Virus record (IMG/VR): IMGVR_UViG_3300028833_000053
DNA from: a virus
Lineage: Duplodnaviria > Caudoviricetes
Length of the DNA: 64,000 nt
Strand: one strand, 5' to 3'
Position numbers and translations under genes: made by a program. Positions 47,071 to 62,591 of this stretch are shown here, in pieces (position 1 is the first letter of the stretch; each line of letters starts with the position of its first letter). Under the pieces are notes generated by a model that worked only from the letters and a program-made list of their open reading frames with translations, had not been told where the DNA came from and did no database searches.

Positions 47071-48243
47071 TCACAGCCCCAAAGCCTCCACCAAACGAGA
47101 CGTGAGCATCTTGTCAACGTACTCCTGCGCAGAGCGCACCATAGACTCTTCCTTCTTGGTCTTCGCGTAGACTGAATCAAAGTAGGCGAACGCGAACCCG
47201 GAATACGGACGGATGGTGTTGATGGTGAACACCCACTTGGCGAAGTTCTTCTTGGTGATGGTGTCCCATTCCACCTCCATCAGCTTGTCAATGGCCTCCT
47301 TCACATCCTCCAGATCCTTTACATAGGCATCGTACTTTGCCTTTACCACGTCAAATGCAGCCTTGAACTGGGGGAAGTACACGATGTACTCCGACACCTC
47401 GTTGGCGCGGAGAATCTCCAACACGCGGGTCGGAGACCACACGCCATTGCCAGCCATGTAGTGAAGCTGGACGTAGCGCGGCGACTTCACCTTCACGCGG
47501 TTGAAGTTGGCATCCACCACCACGTATCCCTCCTCATCCTCGGGAAGAATCTTCGCCGCCTCAACGCACTGGTCAATGTTGTGGATGGGGTAGATCTTGG
47601 GCGTGTCGAAAATCTCCGCAAGGGGATGGTCGCCGAAGAACGTTTCCTTGCAAGAAACGTTGTCGCGGACGCCAATGAAGTTCATCTTCGTCTCTTCCCA
47701 ACGCACCACCACCTGATTCCAGGGGGACGTAAGCTCAAAGATGTAGGTGAACCCGGGGGCGAACAGACGGGGGAAGTCCTCCGCCTTGATGCCATAATAC
47801 TTGAAGCCCTCCATGACCAACTCGCCAAATGAGTTGAACGGACAACCCACGTTCTCGGGCAAGTTGCACTTGAAAGCGTCAATCACGCCATTCGTGGAAA
47901 TGAGGAAGTTTCCATCGAGGTTCACAATCTTGATGATGGAACCGTCCAGCTTCTGCGTCACATACGCCGTGCGCCAATCCACCTCGGCCATCCAAGGCTC
48001 TCCATAGTTGAAGAACTTGACGAAGGGGAATGAAACGATTTCCAGCGTATTGGCATCCAGAACCAACCCACGGCACTCCTTCACGATGTCAAGGGAGAAG
48101 TCGGAGCGAATCTGGTCGTACTTGAGCAGAATCAAGTCACGTCCAAACACGTTGTCACGCGAAATTGAAATGCAATAGGGCTCCGACGAGAGCAGGCACT
48201 CCCAATCGGAATTTCCACGGATGAACTCTTGAACTTTCAACAT
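47071..48243 (-). CDS. RNA ligase (T4 Rnl1-like)
   Basis: ECRGLV, PFVKFFNYGE, QKLDGS, FELTSP, EGYVV, RVKVKS..Y. Confidence 0.9.
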   Translation of the reverse strand: MLKVQEFIRGNSDWECLLSSEPYCISISRDNVFGRDLILLKYDQIRSDFSLDIVKECRGLVLDANTLEIVSFPFVKFFNYGEPWMAEVDWRTAYVTQKLDGSIIKIVNLDGNFLISTNGVIDAFKCNLPENVGCPFNSFGELVMEGFKYYGIKAEDFPRLFAPGFTYIFELTSPWNQVVVRWEETKMNFIGVRDNVSCKETFFGDHPLAEIFDTPKIYPIHNIDQCVEAAKILPEDEEGYVVVDANFNRVKVKSPRYVQLHYMAGNGVWSPTRVLEILRANEVSEYIVYFPQFKAAFDVVKAKYDAYVKDLEDVKEAIDKLMEVEWDTITKKNFAKWVFTINTIRPYSGFAFAYFDSVYAKTKKEESMVRSAQEYVDKMLTSRLVEALGL

Positions 48244-48588: not shown

Positions 48589-48627
48589 ATAAATTCACCT
48601 CTTATTGATTCAAGAGTATTTACACCT

Positions 48628-48846
48628 TCACTTCACTTTTCCCATGGAACCGATCTTGTCAACAATGGCGTTGGCTTCCGTGAAGATGGTTTCAATGCGG
48701 GCAAGCAGAACCTTCTTGGTTGGCTTCTTGATGAGGTTGCTGTTCTCAATGGCGTTTTTCACTTCAAGCAGGGGATCGTTGCACTTCCTGAAGTTGTTTG
48801 ACACCGTTTCATACAAGTCTGTGATGGTCTCTTTATCCATGGACAT
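48628..48846 (-). CDS. Hypothetical protein
   Basis: AAGGA RBS; TTTACC-17-TATAAT upstream. Confidence 0.6.
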   Translation of the reverse strand: MSMDKETITDLYETVSNNFRKCNDPLLEVKNAIENSNLIKKPTKKVLLARIETIFTEANAIVDKIGSMGKVK

Positions 48847-48913
48847 TTCCTTTTAGATTTCAATTGGGTTATGTTCAATTATACCACAATCACCGGAAAT
48901 GGTAAATATCTTC

Positions 48914-49561
48914 ATGGCTAGTGAAACATATACATAGAACGCATCGAAGGACATTAACTTCAACCTCACGGAAAACACGTTTGAACGTGACTTGGAAGGA
49001 TTGGTGTTTGCGGGATGGAACAAGGACAGCCCCTGGACAAATGAAGTCCAATACACGGATTGTCAAGAAGTTCGCTTCTCCCAAAACACGAAGTTGTACG
49101 CGATTTGGAAAGAACCCGATTTCAACGTGGTGTACAAATTGCCAAATGAAACCGTTGTAAACTGGAGAAACTTCGAGGGTGGTACAATACCAAGCAAGTT
49201 CTTTAGTTCCTTGAATCCATCGGGAAACCCATTACCGGAAGTGGTCAAGATATATAATGGAGTTACAACCATCGCTGAACAATCGTTCTATGATTGCACC
49301 ACGTTGAAAAAAATTGCCATGGCACGTTGCGTAACAACCATAGGAAAAATGGCTTTTATGGGATGCGGCAAATTGACAGAGATGACAATACCAAGTTCGG
49401 TAACGTCCATAGGGCAAAACGCCTTTGGAAGCACAGGGATCAGAACCTTGACATTTGATGGTATGGACAAAGCAACTGTACAGGCTTTGCCAAACTACGG
49501 AAACTGGGGATTGGGTTCAGGATGCAAACTGAAATGCACGGATGGGGATTTAACCGTATAA
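48914..49561 (+). CDS. InlB B-repeat-like + BspA LRR protein (1 in-frame TAG)
   Basis: FAGWN...LYAIW, LRR IPSSVTSIG.NAF, C-terminal WGLG...CTDG; late motif at 48901-48908. Confidence 0.8.
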
Positions 49562-50227: not shown

Positions 50228-50854
50228 ATGGCAATACACATACACACGTTAAATGGTGGAGACATCACCATAACAACTGGCGGTTCTACCCCCCCCCCAC
50301 CTACGGAACATCCCGAAACCAGATTCACACTTCAAGATGGAACCGTGGAGGAATATGACATTGAAGGAACACTTGACTTTCAATGGATGGCTGACAATGA
50401 GTTCGTTGATGTTAATGAATAGGTATGGCTAAAAACCATAACCGCAGTTGACATTGGAGTTGGCAGTCAAGAACATCCTTTGACGAGCATCGGGGAAGGG
50501 ACGTTCATGGGTTGCAGAGGACTTACGAATCTGACGATACCGGATTCCGTGACGAGCATCGAGGATCAAGCGTTCTACGGTTGCAGTGGTCTTACGAGCG
50601 TGACGATAGGCAGTGGCGTTACGTACATCGGGTGGGAGACGTTCGCCGTATGCAGCGGTCTTACGAGCATGACATTCAACAACTTTGACGTTTCAACTAC
50701 AAAAACCGAAATAACAAAGAGTTATATTTTAGGAACAGACTTCTATGATGAAAACTGGAATCGGATTGAAAAGACCATCCGTGTCAACTGCACAGATGGC
50801 TCGTTTGACATGACATTTGGAACAGACAGTTCAATAACATTCACAGACCTTTAA
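50228..50854 (+). CDS. BspA-type LRR protein (1 in-frame TAG)
   Basis: N-terminus MAI.I..L.GG.I shared with the gene starting at 4017; LRRs; V.CTDG end. Confidence 0.8.
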
Positions 50855-50925
50855 TGACAGTAACCATCATCATAAAACAACAAAGACCGGCTCTGTCAAT
50901 CATGAGCCAGCCTTTCTTCGTTAAA

Positions 50926-51010
50926 TGGGGCGGGGAATGATGAGGGCTTCTACCCCACCCCCAAGTTTACGACTCCGCTTGCGCGAATGAACTTGGAATA
51001 CTCTCCCCGC
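50926..51010 (-). ncRNA. 85-nt tRNA-like RNA with CCA end (non-cloverleaf)
   Basis: GCGGGGA/TCCCCGC stem + C-CCA; CCAAGTT/AACTTGG stem enclosing a GCAA-tetraloop hairpin; T-arm-like hairpin; same 3' trailer as the neighbouring tRNA. Confidence 0.55.
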
Positions 51011-51046
51011 AGGAGCAAGTGCTTTCTCGTTGCAACGATATTTCAA

Positions 51047-51502
51047 TTATACAGATTTCTTGGTCAACCTGAGCATAATCCATTTCCTGAACCATTCAGG
51101 CTCTTCCTCAACATGCTCGGCAAGTTTCCGTATCCTACGCTTCCCCAACCTTGAATCCAGAAGGGCAAGCATCCGAATGAAGTAGTTCTCGCTTGCAATG
51201 GCTTCGTCAATCGAGAGGACATTGAGGAACTGATGGACATATTTCATGGCTTCTCCCCAGGAATTTCCAACATACCCAGTGTCCCTAATGACATTGTTGG
51301 TTTCGTTGTTCTTCCAGCCCCTCTTTCCAAGTTCAGCCCAGAACCTTGGGTCAGTGCAGAACCAGACTTCTCCATCGACACGAATGGACATTGCCTGTAT
51401 CTCGCTATTGCCATCACGGTACACATTATAATAATATCCAACCCTTCCCCTCAAGTCCTCGGGAAGTCTGCTTTCCAACGTCTGTTTTGTCTTACTCCAC
51501 AT
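51047..51502 (-). CDS. Hypothetical protein
   Basis: MWSKTKQTLE.RL...LRGRV, ALLD.RLGKRR; AGGA RBS. Confidence 0.75.
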   Translation of the reverse strand: MWSKTKQTLESRLPEDLRGRVGYYYNVYRDGNSEIQAMSIRVDGEVWFCTDPRFWAELGKRGWKNNETNNVIRDTGYVGNSWGEAMKYVHQFLNVLSIDEAIASENYFIRMLALLDSRLGKRRIRKLAEHVEEEPEWFRKWIMLRLTKKSV

Positions 51503-51522
51503 GTCTATTTCCTATCGTTAAA

Positions 51523-51611
51523 TGGTAGGGCCGGCGCGACTCGAACGCGCAATGTCCATACGGACGACGGATTAGAAATCCGTTGGATTCTCCAATTCTC
51601 CGCACGACCCC
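51523..51611 (-). tRNA. tRNA with UCU anticodon (nominally Arg) and long variable arm
   Basis: Acceptor GGGGTCG/CGGCCCT-ACCA; anticodon arm ACGGA-TTTCTAA-TCCGT; variable hairpin GTCC-GTAT-GGAC; T arm GCGCG-TTCGAGT-CGCGC. Confidence 0.9.
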
Positions 51612-51619
51612 ATATAAAT

Positions 51620-51740
51620 CCACACCGCTAGGCTTTAGACCAATGGTTCTCCGTCCCCATTGGAAGACTCGCCGCGGTCATTACCCATCGCAAACCAACC
51701 CAATCCGTCAAGGGCAACAGTCTTTACTACCCGGTCACAC
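51620..51740 (-). ncRNA. Candidate structured RNA upstream of the tRNA
   Basis: Lies between a promoter and the tRNA; AAGACT/AGTCTT, CCAATGG/CCATTGG and ACCG/CGGT pairings. Confidence 0.35.
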
Positions 51741-51746
51741 ATAACA

Positions 51747-51775
51747 ATTATACGCCAAAACCAATCAAATGTAAA
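51747..51775 (-). promoter_or_regulatory. Sigma70-type promoter for the RNA cluster
   Basis: TTTACA-17-TATAAT. Confidence 0.65.
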
Positions 51776-51997
51776 TCAATCCGTGCAATCACCGGACTCA
51801 AACTCCTTCGCCGTCTTGGAATTCCCACCCACCAGAATCAGAGCATCCCCGCCAAGAAGATCGGTGCTTGTTACGGCAATCCCAAAAGGCGCAACCTTGC
51901 CATATTCGGTCTGGATGAACACCGGAACGTTACCATGAATCTTGAGCAGTTTCTGGCAACCACGAACAAAGTCCTTCAATCCCGTGTACTTTGGCAT
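51776..51997 (-). CDS. Hypothetical protein
   Basis: GAGGA RBS. Confidence 0.6.
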   Translation of the reverse strand: MPKYTGLKDFVRGCQKLLKIHGNVPVFIQTEYGKVAPFGIAVTSTDLLGGDALILVGGNSKTAKEFESGDCTD

Positions 51998-52000
51998 AAT

Positions 52001-52381
52001 TCACTTCCTCTTTGAAGCTTCCCACTTTCCATCCTTGAACAAGTACCAATAGTCGGAACCCGCCCAATGCTTGAAAGCATCTTCATCCTCATGCTCGGCT
52101 GGCTTCACATCCTCCCAGTCCTCTCCACGGTCTCTGTGATAGGCAACCGTTATTCCATCAAAGCAGTGTTCAAAGGAATGCTCCACGCCCTCTGGAATGT
52201 CAACCTCCTTGTCAACGGAAGAGCAATCGCCAAGGGCAATCAACTTGTCAATCTTGGCAGGGTCTTTGTAGTTCTTCTTGAGCAGCTTTCCCAAATAGTC
52301 TGGGTAGCCGTCGCAGTTGACGTAAATGGAAGTCACAGTTCCATTGTCGTTTTTCTTTCCAACGAATGCTGGTGTTGACAT
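52001..52381 (-). CDS. Phage hypothetical protein
   Basis: MST...SIY...DGYP.YLG..L, AYHRDRGE, YLFKDGKW; promoter TTTACA-17-TATACT at 52420-52448. Confidence 0.75.
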   Translation of the reverse strand: MSTPAFVGKKNDNGTVTSIYVNCDGYPDYLGKLLKKNYKDPAKIDKLIALGDCSSVDKEVDIPEGVEHSFEHCFDGITVAYHRDRGEDWEDVKPAEHEDEDAFKHWAGSDYWYLFKDGKWEASKRK

Positions 52382-55247: not shown

Positions 55248-58200
55248 TCAGCTATACTCCTCCCTCAACGCAAGGCTTTTCTCGCGCCCAAGAATCTCGC
55301 CCTTGTACTTGTTGTAAAGCTCCACAATCAACATGTCTATCGTTTCTTGATTGACACCTATCGTCTCCTTGAACGCGGCAACGGCCTTGTCGTATTCAAT
55401 CTGTTTGTTGTCAACGTTCTTCCTCATGTTCTCCAGTGAAGTGAAGTCCTCAAGGTTTTCCTTCTTTATCTTCTTCACTTCCATCTTGAGCTTCATTATG
55501 TCCTCTTCGTTGTCCAACTTGTCCATCAAGAGCTTGTTGCGTATGTTGCGGTTACGCTCCCCAATGCAGGCGTTGAATATCTTCTTGTTGGCGTTGGTGA
55601 GTTCCACAATCTTGTCCTCTGCCTTTGCAACGCCATCAATCAACGTCTGAAGATTCTGCCTTTGCGTTGTCAACGTGTTAGTTGCCTATTCAAGGTTGTC
55701 CTTCGCCTGCTGCAACTTCCACATTTCGTATTGGATGTCACCCTGGAAATTGGCAGCTTGCTTGCGCGTTGCAATCTTCTCGATGTCAGATTCCCTTTGT
55801 ATCAAACCAAGGTACTTGAGATAGCCCAAAACGCGGCATTTCATCTTCTTTGCCTCAACGCTCTTGAGCATTTCCTCTTGCTCCTTTTCCCGCAACTTGG
55901 AATACGCCTCAACAACCTTGGATTTCCTTTGTGGTTGGACTGCCAACCTGGACTTTATGTCAGACACGGACCTTTTGCTTTCCGGTTCCTCGCTGTTGAC
56001 CTTCTTCCACGCCTCGATGACCTTCTTGACGTGTTCTATGTCCTTTGGCGATGCGTCTGCAACCGTCCATTCCTTCTCTTCCTCTTCCTTGGCATCCCAA
56101 CCATACTTGTCTTGGTAGTGCAACCTTCCCCTGTTTCCAATCTTGTCCTTCAACTCCATTATCAACTTCTCCAACTTCTCGCGTTGCACCAAAAGACTTT
56201 GCTTGTATTGGTTCTTCCTCAGATTGAACGCCACCTTGTTGCACTTCTTGCGGAACTCCATGAATTCCTCTTCGGACCCAAACCCCATTTCAGAATAGGT
56301 CTTGTTTCCGGCGTTGGCGGCGTACCAATCGTGCAGCAAGATTATTTCGCGTATGCTGGCGGACGCAATAGCGGTAAACGAGAAGTCGTGGCGGAGGGTA
56401 TGGCTTGAATCCCATATTTGCTCCTCCGTGTCGGCCATTTTCTGCGCGAAGTTATGTACAAGCCTGCGCACCTTTATGGTTGCGTCGGAGCACATGGTCT
56501 GCATCTTCTTCAACTGGTTCAATTCATATCCAAGGTTGTACATGTAGTTGCGCCACTTCTCCGTCTTGCGGATGAGTCCATTCAAATGGCCCGTCTGGAT
56601 TCTTTCAAGGCTTCCAACGGGATGTTCCTCTTCTTCCTCTTCTTCGCGTTTTGCCATTGCAGACCTTGGAGTTGCCTAATCGGCAAGATGATCGTTATAG
56701 CCAACCCACATGCTTCCTGAAGTTGAATCGGTGAGGGCATCTTTCATGTCATCTAGTTCATCCTTTCTTCCCCCCTGCTCCTGTTGAACCTTGTCGCCGT
56801 CAACCTAGTAGTCCTTGAATTCCTTGTTGTCAAGCCGTTCCTCAAACTTCTCCTTCCTTCCCTGGAAATTCGCCAATGCAGTATTCAGCGCGGCTGCCTA
56901 TTCGTCGGTCAACGCATTGGGATCTGCGTCTATTATGTCACTTATTTGCCTGTTTATTTCCTTGACATCAACATCGCGTATTTCGTCTATGCGTTCCTGT
57001 ATTTCCTTGATTGAACCTATTATGTTCTTGTTCAACTCCAATTTCACGGAACTTATCTTCTGACCAAGGGCGAGCTTTTGATCTATCTGGTTGTTCAACA
57101 AGTTGTTGTACTCTGCAACCAAGGCGTTCAATATTTCCTGCTTCTCGTCCTTTATTCCAATCAACTGCGCTTCCCTTGTCTTGAGTTCATCGTACTCGGC
57201 AAGCAAGTCGTAGTATTTCATCACAAGCTCCATCAAGGGCTTGTTCTTCGTGAACTCCTGAAACATGCGTTGAATAGCCAATGTCTCCTTGGTGAAGCAC
57301 TCCGAAATCTGAACTTCCTTCTGCCTTACGTTGCGGTTCAACTGCTCCAACGCAAGTTCCATTCCCTCCAACCTGTTTTTGAATTGAAGATAATGGCGAA
57401 CTTGTTTCAAGTCATAGTTTGGAATCCTCTGCCTGAAAATGGAATAATGCGACGAAGTTGTGGATTTCACCATGGGGACTTCATCGACAATTGTGGGACT
57501 CCATTTCCCGGTGCTCCTGCTTGGTCGGTCCAACGCCAATATGTTTCCATTTTCGGAATCAAATTGGCAGAAGTCCTCCTTGCATACGCAAAGTATGGTG
57601 TTTCTGTTGGACGCGGCTATCAACGCCATGTCAAGTTTACCGTCAGACCTGCGCTTGAACTGTCCATCCTTGTCCATCCTAGCCACGATATAGCCGTACT
57701 TTGACCCGAACTTGCGCTGAACCTTCACCAAATACTCGCCAGTGTGGTTCTTGTCCTTGTCTGGGTCAACCAAGGCAAAGGTGGAAATGGCGTTTATATT
57801 GTACTTCTTGAGTTGCTTCAGGTACTTTATGTGCTTTTCATCGTAGTACGCCCTTGAAGTCACTGGACGGAAATCAACGTGCGTGTTTGGAATCAAGGCG
57901 ATTTCCGTAGTGAAATCATTTGAATTGGTGAATGGGACATACAAGTTGTCAACATAAAACCCGGACTTCTTCGTGCCGGTGGAGTTGAATCCCTTTTTGA
58001 AGATGAGATTGAAAAACCTCAAAAGGACATTGGACATCCTCACTCCTTGGTACATCACCTCTTGCGTCCTTTTCTGTTGGTATTCAACACTGCCATTGTG
58101 AATGACCTTGCTCCAATCCGGCGCAAGGTTTGCAAGTTGTGGACGGAAGTTCTTGTTCAGCAAGAACCTTTCATACTCATGCCTTGAATACGCCTTGTGT

Positions 58201-58499
58201 TCCTTGTATGTGTATATGGAATCGTTTGACACGGACGAACTGTCCAATTTTATGATGTCCAAAGCCACGGCGTCACGCACGGTTGGATTGTCATACGAAA
58301 TGCCATACTTGGACAGAATGTCCCTCGGAGTTTCGTCGGAATAGTTCATTCTCCACGCATCCGAATCAAACAAGTCCTGAAAAACCTTTTTGATGTTGTT
58401 CTCGCCAGAGTCTGGAAGCGACTTGTCCAGTTCGGGCGTCTTGCAGACATACTTCGTCGATGAATCAACTATCTTGGTTCTGTTGTGTCCTTGGCTCAT
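55248..58499 (-). CDS. Large coiled-coil late protein, 1083 aa (4 in-frame TAG)
   Basis: Three track ORFs joined through TAG at 56898, 56805, 56676 and 55686, with no TAA/TGA in frame. Confidence 0.75.
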
Positions 58500-61981: not shown

Positions 61982-62347
61982 TGGTGGACTAGCCGGGAAT
62001 TGCACCCGGGTCTTGCTCAGGTTCAGATGCCACTTGGTCATATGCTTATGCCCATCTTGGTTTCATTCGGTACAGATAGGGCAATGACTCCCGAATGATT
62101 TTATGGGAATGGCTGCATGTGGACGTTCCCATATTCCACCACAGTTGCGTTGGTAAGTTAAGCCCAACAGGATATTCACGCACAATCTCTCCCATTGAAC
62201 TGCTGTCTTACTGATGTGTTTCAATCAAGCAGCGAGAGCATAATCGTTCTCATTTGAATTTCGGTCAATTTTTAGAGAAGCCACTTGACCAACTTCTGCA
62301 TACATAATGCCACCCTAACATCTGCCAATCGATACTAGTTCTAGCCC
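61982..62347 (-). ncRNA. ssrA: tmRNA
   Basis: 5' GGGCTAG / 3' CTAGTCC-ACCA with G3.U70; T arm CCGGG-TGCAATT-CCCGG; tag frame DRNSNENDYALAA* at 62266-62225. Confidence 0.92.
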
Positions 62348-62372
62348 ATAAATCGTTGTTGTCTATTTACAA

Positions 62373-62591
62373 TTATACCCGTTTCTTATCCTTCTTAGGT
62401 TTCTCGTCGGGGGTATCAATGCCGTTGATGGCGATAAACACGCCCTCAATGGATGGCAACCCCATCACCAGAAAGAACCAACACTTTTCTGTATGTCCGG
62501 CCCTGATTTCAATTCCCGCAACAAAGCACATCATACCAAACGCCAATATGCTGCACAGAACCATGAAATACTTGCCAAAGGTCATTTCCAT
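62373..62591 (-). CDS. Small two-TM membrane protein
   Basis: AAGGA RBS; two hydrophobic segments. Confidence 0.6.
   Translation of the reverse strand: MEMTFGKYFMVLCSILAFGMMCFVAGIEIRAGHTEKCWFFLVMGLPSIEGVFIAINGIDTPDEKPKKDKKRV

Follow-up and report, generated by a model that had tools for sequence, protein, structure and literature searches.

A predicted stand-alone structured RNA with a leader pseudoknot, tentatively a non-decoding tRNA look-alike, downstream of tRNA-Arg(UCU) in a TAG-recoded huge phage

The DNA analysed here is a 64,000-nt stretch (the window) that corresponds to the minus strand of positions 233268-297267 of a 433,895-bp virus genome in IMG/VR (G000), which has direct terminal repeats and is rated 100% complete. 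ARAGORN finds 36 tRNA genes in this 434-kb genome, the majority within an array at 310-323 kb, as well as a tRNA with a CUA anticodon at G000 410487-410576 that fits a recoding of TAG. Given that reading TAG as a sense codon fuses several ORFs and that a tRNA with the matching anticodon is present, the genome is, to judge from these sequence features, that of a huge phage with TAG recoding. The features of the locus, in window coordinates, are as follows.

48605-49561, plus strand: ORF that is open only with TAG read as sense, with 2 in-frame TAGs
50228-50854, plus strand: ORF that is open only with TAG read as sense, with 1 in-frame TAG
50874-50925, minus strand: trailer UUUAACGAAGAAA and a hairpin resembling an intrinsic terminator (GGCUGGCUC / GAGCCGGUC, with a 10-nt loop), then UUUGUUGUUUU, as read from the sequence
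50926-51010, minus strand: the element that is the subject of this study
51019-51037, minus strand: invariant 19-nt 5' box CGUUGCAACGAGAAAGCAC, consisting of a 10-nt palindrome and an A-rich tail
51044-51052, minus strand: promoter motif GTATAATTG with the -10 sequence TATAAT; the TAA stop codon of the upstream SF0329 ORF lies inside the motif
51047-51502, minus strand: optional cargo ORF between tRNA-Arg and the element, 151 aa, of the Pfam SF0329 family (PF25753, E 8e-29)
51523-51611, minus strand: tRNA-Arg(UCU), 89 nt with a long variable arm, called by ARAGORN and scored at 44.4 bits by the Rfam tRNA model
55248-58499, minus strand: 1083-aa frame across 4 in-frame TAGs, open only with TAG read as sense

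In the window, a converging plus-strand gene runs toward the terminator of the element. The original prediction had described the element as an 85-nt, CCA-ended tRNA mimic, and the sequence features that it listed are all present on the minus strand at 50926-51010, a length of 85 nt. Read from 51010 downward, this strand begins with GCGGGGA, GAGUAUU, CCAAGUU-CA-UUCGC-GCAA-GCGGA-GUCGUA-AACUUGG and G, and continues with GGUGGGG-UAGAAGC-CCUCAUC, AU, UCCCCGC, C and CCA. The fold described for it is both the minimum free energy structure and the centroid structure, at -36.4 kcal/mol (z -3.35). Shuffled versions of the element fold at -26.2 ± 3.0 kcal/mol, and none of 200 shuffles folds as well as the native sequence. 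The parts of the fold, including a leader helix that we describe below, are as follows.

51013-51017, minus strand: 5' strand of P0 (UGCUC), in the leader, pairing with 50999-51003
51011-51012, minus strand: loop 1 of the pseudoknot (CU), with U at position -1
51004-51010, minus strand: 5' strand of the acceptor-like stem P1 (GCGGGGA), pairing with 50930-50936
50999-51003, minus strand: 3' strand of P0 (GAGUA), directly after the 5' strand of P1
50961-50996, minus strand: rod-like arm in place of the D and anticodon arms, made up of P2 (CCAAGUU/AACUUGG), an internal loop (CA / GUCGUA) and the P3 hairpin (UUCGC-GCAA-GCGGA)
50939-50959, minus strand: T-arm-like hairpin P4 (GGUGGGG-UAGAAGC-CCUCAUC), 7 bp including two G-U pairs
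50930-50936, minus strand: 3' strand of P1 (UCCCCGC), then the discriminator C at 50929 and CCA at 50926-50928

Ten further distinct homologues of the element were found, two in related IMG/VR phage records of 75-414 kb and eight on metagenome contigs, and the set used for covariation analysis comprises 11 distinct sequences with that of the window included. Two related IMG/VR records, L002 and L003, were reached by protein synteny through the SF0329 ORF; L003 has the same layout as the window and a diverged copy of the element. A scan with the 5' box led to L009, which is a 414-kb phage genome, and to 16 metagenome contigs, nine of which carry the element at 51-96 bits with our model R1 (one of the nine duplicates L009). 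The box was the means of finding eight of the 11 sequences, and unbiased evidence for its invariance comes from the window, L002 and L003 only. No match was obtained in the phage GenBank collection for the 1 kb that surrounds the element, or in IMG/VR for an exact 34-mer, while two degenerate patterns based on the RNA body returned from IMG/VR only the known relatives and chance matches that the model rejected, with no members that lack the box. Across 185,579 bacterial and archaeal genomes, a 17-mer of the box matched at 26 chance sites without the element, to which model R2 gives 17-24 bits from the box alone. As judged by this distribution, the element family is narrow and phage-specific and lies in a narrow clade of TAG-recoded huge phages. 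The element averages 73% identity among relatives, and it is far better conserved than the neighbouring tRNA-Arg genes.

One relative has lost most of the RNA. In L002 (IMGVR_UViG_3300021400_000025, a complete 418-kb genome, also G001), most of the RNA body is deleted, and the box and a short 3' piece are kept. This natural deletion variant, at L002:2955-3045 on the plus strand, retains the promoter-like GTGTAATTG along with the box; the body is replaced by a short new hairpin, UUUCUUC-GGA-GAAGAAA, and CUCAUCAUUCCCC is all that is left of the 3' part.

Covariation among homologues had been proposed as a check on the predicted fold, and it was found: the 11 sequences carry compensatory changes in four helices. 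Over the whole structure (alignment A4), 91.5% of the cells pair, as compared with 81.5 ± 1.2% in shuffles, none of which (0 of 500) reaches the observed value. Double changes occur at 13 pairs and in 39 cells, against 15.7 in shuffles, and pairing falls to 39-55% when the 3' partners are slid by ±1 to 3 columns. The results for the individual helices are as follows.

P1, acceptor-like: 7 pairs, 100% of cells paired, 4 pairs with compensatory change
P2, base of the long arm: 7 pairs, 100% of cells paired, 5 pairs with compensatory change
P4, T-like: 5 pairs, 91% of cells paired, 1 pair with compensatory change (G-U to C-G)
P0, leader helix: 5 pairs, 98% of cells paired, 2 pairs that covary

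Positions 6 and 7 of P1 exchange G-C and A-U pairs, and position 1 is G-C, G-U or A-U. The sequences of P2 are almost wholly different among homologues (CCAAGUU, CUUGUUC and CUGAAUC are examples). The distal hairpin P3 is poorly aligned by MAFFT; the long arm nevertheless folds as a hairpin in all 11 homologues despite their differing sequences, with a GNRA cap in eight, UUCGU in one and a 7-nt loop in two (L052 and L054). To judge from these sequences, P3 ends in a structural cap and not in an anticodon loop. The D and anticodon arms that were predicted to be missing are indeed absent, since a single rod hairpin, capped by 4-5 nt in 9 of the 11 homologues, replaces both. The predicted 7-bp T hairpin is present in the window, but only its inner 5 bp (UGGGG/CCUCA) are conserved. 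The G-C pair that closes the P4 loop is invariant (11/11), the loop consensus is U-A-N-R-A-G-Y, and one clade carries a fixed G.A mismatch in this hairpin. As read from these alignments, the element is a real, selected, structured RNA.

The leader takes part in this structure. Nucleotides -7 to -3 pair with the 5 nt directly after the acceptor 5' strand, and the paired strands change together among homologues (UGCUC/GAGUA, UGCUG/CAGUA, UGCCG/CGGUA and UACCG/CGGUA). The strand order is leader strand, 2-nt loop, acceptor 5' strand, partner strand, long loop and acceptor 3' strand, which is the topology of a classical H-type pseudoknot. Thus, going by the topology that can be read from the sequence, P0 and P1 form an H-type pseudoknot. 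This bears on the extent of the RNA, which the original prediction had given as 85 nt: the leader belongs to the structure, through the covarying pseudoknot and the 19 invariant nucleotides of the box, and the RNA thus goes beyond a mimic of that size.

The promoter motif GTATAATTG occurs 42 times in the 434-kb genome, where 3.3 copies are expected, and the variants in which A, C or T precedes TATAATTG occur 3, 3 and 0 times. Its copies often lie after terminators and before genes, and it also heads the tRNA-Arg operon (51747-51755, minus strand) and the tmRNA gene (62370-62378, minus strand). Among the 12 loci, it stands 6 nt upstream of the box in nine and 3 nt upstream in L041, or in 10 of 12 in all; L052, where no ORF precedes, is counted among the loci with the motif before the box. 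On the evidence of this motif, the element has its own promoter, with a putative transcription start. The box, which would be the extreme 5' end of the transcript, is identical at 19 of 19 positions in the window, L002 and L003 (found by synteny and not via the box) and in L009. It is unique in the 434-kb genome, with no second match at up to 2 mismatches.

Several roles for the box were considered and rejected. A general promoter is ruled out by its single copy in the genome. An antisense seed has no convincing target: a single 12-mer complement exists in the genome, as expected by chance, and a 9-mer complement is enriched through a coding-sequence bias. Likewise, a T-box-like pairing of AGA(A) in the box with the anticodon loop of tRNA-Arg was dropped, because the complementarity extends over only 4-5 nt and the box is invariant.

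At the other end of the gene, a hairpin and U-run homologous to those of the window are found in L003, L046 and L051, and a different one in L042 and L047. A terminator follows the element in 6 of the 12 loci. Our terminator scanner does not call the hairpin in the window, since the scanner has a loop limit of 8 nt. The neighbours of the element are not constant: most loci have SF0329 as the cargo ORF, but G003 has an unrelated ORF of 108 aa in its place and L052 has none, and no downstream gene is common to the loci, with downstream genes that differ or are missing. Given its own promoter and terminator, its exchangeable neighbours and the lack of a common downstream gene, the element is, to judge from this layout, a stand-alone small-RNA gene, as opposed to a riboswitch, the tail of an mRNA or a dead tRNA.

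We compared the element with known RNA families using the tools that had been suggested for checking the original prediction. ARAGORN does not call it a tRNA, although it calls the neighbouring tRNA-Arg. In a permissive Rfam scan of 1.8 kb (50400-52200), no family is credible on the element at E<=10, the tRNA model included, and the sole match that overlaps it is a snoRNA on the other strand (14.8 bits, E = 8). An Rfam scan of the whole window at the gathering scores was empty but missed a true tRNA and a true tmRNA, and permissive scans were therefore relied on instead. HDV-like, hammerhead, twister and pistol ribozymes were rejected on strand order, which by eye does not fit, and on the absence of an Rfam match. 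The element thus matches no described Rfam family and, by this comparison, is a new structured RNA family relative to Rfam. Candidate structured RNAs from IMG/VR have been catalogued (PMC10690425); the novelty of the element is judged here against Rfam.

Several features of the element are of the tRNA type. The terminal stem has 7 bp, with G at +1 in 10 of 11 homologues and U at -1 in 10 of 11. The P4 hairpin resembles a T arm in its 5-bp core and in its 7-nt loop, with U, a purine and A at positions 1, 4 and 5, but loop positions 2-3 are A-N and not the U-C of tRNA. In tRNA, positions 2-3 of the T loop contact the D loop. The P4 loop thus keeps the positions that build a T loop (U1, R4 and A5) and drops the two that contact the D loop, which is absent here. 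Between the T-like stem and the acceptor 3' strand are 0-4 unpaired nt, and the T-like stem itself has 7-8 bp in some lineages, so that the stack of acceptor plus T arm is not the 12 bp of tRNA. Set beside the canonical tRNA (RF00005), the element is alike in its 7-bp acceptor-like stem, its N73-CCA (in the window), its 5-bp/7-nt hairpin with G-C closure and its CCA-TTT trailer, whereas it differs in having neither D arm nor anticodon arm, in loop positions 2-3, which are off consensus, and in its extra junction nucleotides.

The 3' end of the element bears out the original prediction in part. The predicted CCA is encoded in the window but in only 5 of 11 homologues (the window, L003, L009, L052 and L054); L041 has CCU, and L042, L046, L047, L051 and L055 have neither and carry U at position 72, opposite position 1. 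N-CCA is followed by UU in five lineages whose flanks otherwise differ. Of the 36 tRNA genes of the window's phage, 33 encode CCA, in most cases with (A)TTT behind it. In the 434-kb genome there are exactly two copies of CCA-TTTAACGA, one after the element and one after tRNA-Arg(UCU) 597 nt upstream, and CCATTTAACGA is found only twice, 3' of the element and of this same tRNA-Arg(UCU) at 51523-51611. The trailer is therefore identical to that of the nearby tRNA, as had been predicted to point to shared processing, but CCA-(A)TTT is common to most tRNAs of the phage and does not single the element out. In L003, the two trailers differ (CCATTTGACGA versus CCATTCAATGA), so their identity is specific to the window's genome. 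By its sequence, the CCA-TTT trailer places the window's element among tRNA-type transcripts. The linkage to tRNA-Arg(UCU) extends further, as this gene lies upstream of the element in all eight loci that reach far enough, at distances from 23 nt (in L052) to about 1075 nt.

The tRNA-Arg(UCU) gene is itself variable. Its bodies cannot be aligned among the window, L002, L003, L012, L041, L046, L047, L051 and L052, while the flanking RNAs are conserved. At this locus it has six different acceptor stems and a length of 76-89 nt, and the long variable arm is present only in the window and L046, a pattern that points to rapid turnover or replacement of the gene. Between the promoter of the tRNA-Arg operon (TTTACA-17-TATAAT, 51747-51775) and tRNA-Arg lies a conserved, apparently structured leader of about 130 nt (51612-51745, minus strand) that has no Rfam match. 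Blocks of this leader are invariant in eight relatives (AAAGACUG..., CGAGUCUUCC, GACG..GAAC and GGUCUAGAGC), and the stems between the blocks differ (CCAAUGG/CCAUUGG versus CCCAUGG/CCAUGGG).

The reading that we favour, at a probability of roughly 45%, is that the element encodes a stand-alone, non-decoding tRNA-like RNA that is handled by tRNA-processing enzymes and then acts as a tRNA look-alike. Transcription would start from its own GTATAATTG promoter, a few nucleotides before the 19-nt box, and end at the intrinsic terminator. The RNA would fold into a three-part junction of a 7-bp acceptor-like stem, a rod-like hairpin and a T-arm-like hairpin, and its 5' leader would pair with the 5 nt after the acceptor 5' strand to form the H-type pseudoknot. 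With no anticodon loop, the RNA cannot decode. To the tRNA-maturation enzymes of the host it would be a tRNA-like substrate, with RNase P cutting after U(-1), in loop 1 of the pseudoknot, and with trimming or rebuilding of the 3' end to give N-CCA, as in the CCA-TTT tRNA genes of the phage. The resulting look-alike, presumably stable, may occupy a protein that recognizes the acceptor/T half of tRNAs.

This tRNA-like reading is favoured by the selected structure, the 7-bp stem with U(-1) and G(+1), the T-like loop, the N-CCA-UU of five lineages and the constant presence of tRNA-Arg(UCU) upstream, and it agrees with a gene that has its own promoter and terminator. H-type pseudoknots that carry a 3' RCCA are substrates of bacterial RNase P, which cuts them in loop 1 and does so best with U at N-1 (PMC12710915), and the leader pseudoknot of the element is therefore compatible with RNase P. 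A precedent exists in rnaD and rnaC of phage T4, which encode stable RNAs whose roles are unknown (PMC3014915). On the other hand, 5 of 11 homologues lack CCA and have U at position 72, and the stack of acceptor plus T arm is not 12 bp. The end of the acceptor stem on which the leader helix stacks is the one that would serve a T arm, leader nucleotides -7 to -3 are sequestered in this helix, and the most conserved part of the element is the 5' box, which cleavage by RNase P would remove. Furthermore, the Rfam tRNA and tmRNA models and ARAGORN all fail to recognize the element.

The closest biological parallel is RNAC (species 1) and RNAD (species 2) of T4. Like the element, these RNAs are phage-encoded and non-decoding and lie directly downstream of tRNA-Arg on the same strand, the T4 gene order being tRNA-Arg, rnaD and rnaC, and RNAC contains a tRNA-type T hairpin as the element has a T-like one. 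Unlike the element, RNAC and RNAD are 119 and 139 nt in length, RNAC has the canonical loop UUCGAAU, and no box or leader pseudoknot is known for either. Model R2, run with its filters off on T4 70908-71171 (rnaC/rnaD), detects no homology.

The tRNA-like domain of tmRNA (RF00023) is built in the same way: it lacks an anticodon, and between its acceptor stem and T arm a long rod helix takes the place of the anticodon arm. In contrast to tmRNA, the element has G3-C70 and not G3-U70 in all homologues, measures 85-125 nt without an mRNA-like reading frame, and has a non-canonical T loop, a rod that is simply capped by a tetraloop, and no Rfam match. The phage's true tmRNA lies at 61982-62347 on the minus strand (Rfam 52.5 bits, with a gathering score of 47); it has G3-U70 and is missed by ARAGORN.

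C4 of phages P1 and P7 is a small RNA whose ends form an acceptor-like stem and that is matured by RNase P. It is named among the phage RNA substrates of RNase P (PMC12710915). The element differs from the C4 antisense RNA family (RF01695) in that it has no match to it at E<=10 and no evident counterpart of the target-pairing loops of C4. Viral tRNA-like structures of the TYMV type resemble the element in placing an acceptor-type helix in an H-type pseudoknot, with a U 5' of the putative cleavage site and a 3' CCA. The TYMV pseudoknot, however, is formed by the 3' strand and sits at the terminus of an RNA genome, whereas that of the element uses the 5' leader of a small DNA-phage transcript; the TYMV structure also has an anticodon-like arm and is aminoacylated.

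The main rival to the tRNA-like reading, which we consider quite possible though on the improbable side, is that the leader is retained. The primary transcript would then be mature in its full length, as a pseudoknotted RNA that regulates or binds protein and whose likeness to tRNA is purely architectural, and the box would be its working part, be it a base-pairing seed, a protein site or a site of palindrome-mediated dimerisation. In favour of such an RNA, the box is invariant at 19/19 nt in the loci found by synteny and survives in G001 despite the loss of most of the body, and the covarying leader helix does make the leader part of the fold. That CCA is dispensable in 5 of 11 homologues and that conservation is far higher in the element than in the adjacent tRNA-Arg genes fit this alternative as well. 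Retention of the leader nevertheless leaves U(-1)/G(+1), N-CCA-UU and the T-loop-like hairpin unexplained, and no complementary target stands out in the genome. In addition, as DNA the box forms a perfect 10-bp palindrome that follows the -10 element immediately, and it could instead be an operator.

It is improbable, in our estimate, that the element acts in cis, either as a module that closes the tRNA-Arg operon and serves punctuation or stability, or as a riboswitch-like leader for the next gene. As a module of this kind, it would be a tRNA-like site for RNase P or RNase E that defines and protects the 3' end of the upstream mRNA. Its position is suitable in the window, where it lies 36 nt after the SF0329 stop codon and just before the terminator, and in L041, L052 and L054 a hairpin that covers the AUG of the next ORF directly follows the element. 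However, the element has its own promoter, the upstream ORF is exchangeable or absent, and in L041 and G003 the tRNA-Arg unit closes with its own terminator before the element is reached. With regard to the next gene, a terminator follows the element in half of the loci, and the downstream genes of the 12 loci differ or are missing, unlike the constant kind of gene, with an expression platform, expected after a riboswitch or cis-regulatory leader.

We regard as very improbable the idea that the element is a functionless remnant of a decayed tRNA gene or of a tRNA-derived attachment site. The GCGGGAG...CUCCCGC-U-CCA acceptor of several homologues appears to resemble tRNA-Gly acceptor ends, and loss of the element is seen in G001. 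Yet compensatory changes maintain four helices, some of which have no tRNA counterpart, and the element has its own promoter and terminator and is conserved above the true tRNA genes of the same phages. A decayed tRNA had been named at the outset as an outcome that would overturn the original prediction; the element is not one, since its non-tRNA parts are kept by compensatory change, and a reading as attP or another tRNA remnant was rejected on covariation. Least credible is a working but rewired decoding tRNA. The phage does carry several tRNAs that standard tools miss, and the long arm has a 7-nt loop in L052 and L054. In the other nine of the 11 homologues, though, this arm is closed by a loop of 4-5 nt; the sole 7-nt loop that is conserved shows A at the place of U33, and its 'anticodon' positions vary between close relatives (GAA, AGA, AAA, GGA and CAA).

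Non-decoding phage tRNA-like RNAs have been known since T4 RNAC and RNAD, and their role is known to nobody. The element offers a cleaner case: a compact RNA of about 115 nt in which each helix is backed by covariation, with an invariant box and a leader pseudoknot that can be mutated separately, a strict linkage to tRNA-Arg(UCU) and a natural deletion variant in G001. If tRNA enzymes process the RNA and a host factor is bound by it, the element would show how huge phages can interfere, by means of RNA, with tRNA metabolism or tRNA-directed immunity in the host. Otherwise, it still is a structured RNA family that is new and absent from Rfam. A bolder proposal, which we put forward as speculative and rather unlikely, is that the element belongs to an undescribed class of anticodon-less, pseudoknotted tRNA look-alikes that are matured by RNase P and the CCA enzyme and act in trans on the host tRNA world. 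Such RNAs might, for example, soak up a defence toxin directed at acceptor ends, or a factor of tRNA quality control or charging, and further members might lie inside the phage tRNA array. If true, this class would give a functional model for the 50-year-old puzzle of T4 RNAC and RNAD.

Two possible paralogues were noticed in the tRNA array. The first, at G000:C1:312931-313039 on the minus strand (L084:1932-2040, minus strand), is a single sequence with a weak folding energy. It has a 5' hairpin, a box-like CGAGAAAGCAU, a leader helix GUGGG/CCCAC that encloses GGGCAGU, and a T-like hairpin with the loop UAAGAGU, followed by ACUGCC-G-CCA-AUUU. The second, at G000:C1:317891-317983 on the minus strand (L013:1506-1598, minus strand), lies between tRNA-Cys and tRNA-Glu(CUC) and consists of 93 nt ending in CCA. 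Its acceptor is GGAGGAU/GUCCUCC and its leader helix UCACAC/GUGUGA; it too has the T-like loop UAAGAGU, along with two inner hairpins, and neither Rfam nor ARAGORN calls it a tRNA. No homologues of the two candidates were found in G001-G003. A genome-wide scan for an acceptor with a leader helix and CCA gave 20 matches, as compared with 3-12 in shuffles, which is too noisy to define a class, and the count of GGTANRAGYCC is not above that of a reversed-pattern control.

The array itself (G000:C1:310500-323700, minus strand) is punctuated by CCA-(A)TTT(C)AA, and many of its units are not called by ARAGORN. Among these is tRNA-Glu(CUC) at 317812-317885, which scores 48 bits with Rfam. By eye, a tRNA-Gly(UCC) can be made out at about 313040-313115 and a tRNA-Gly(GCC) at 312711-312785, with the unusual T loops GCAGCAC and GGCAGCA. 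In the window, an ORF of the T4 Rnl1 RNA ligase family (47071-48243, minus strand; Pfam RNA_lig_T4_1, E 3e-15) lies 3 kb downstream of the element and puts an enzyme of the tRNA-repair type near the locus of this odd RNA.
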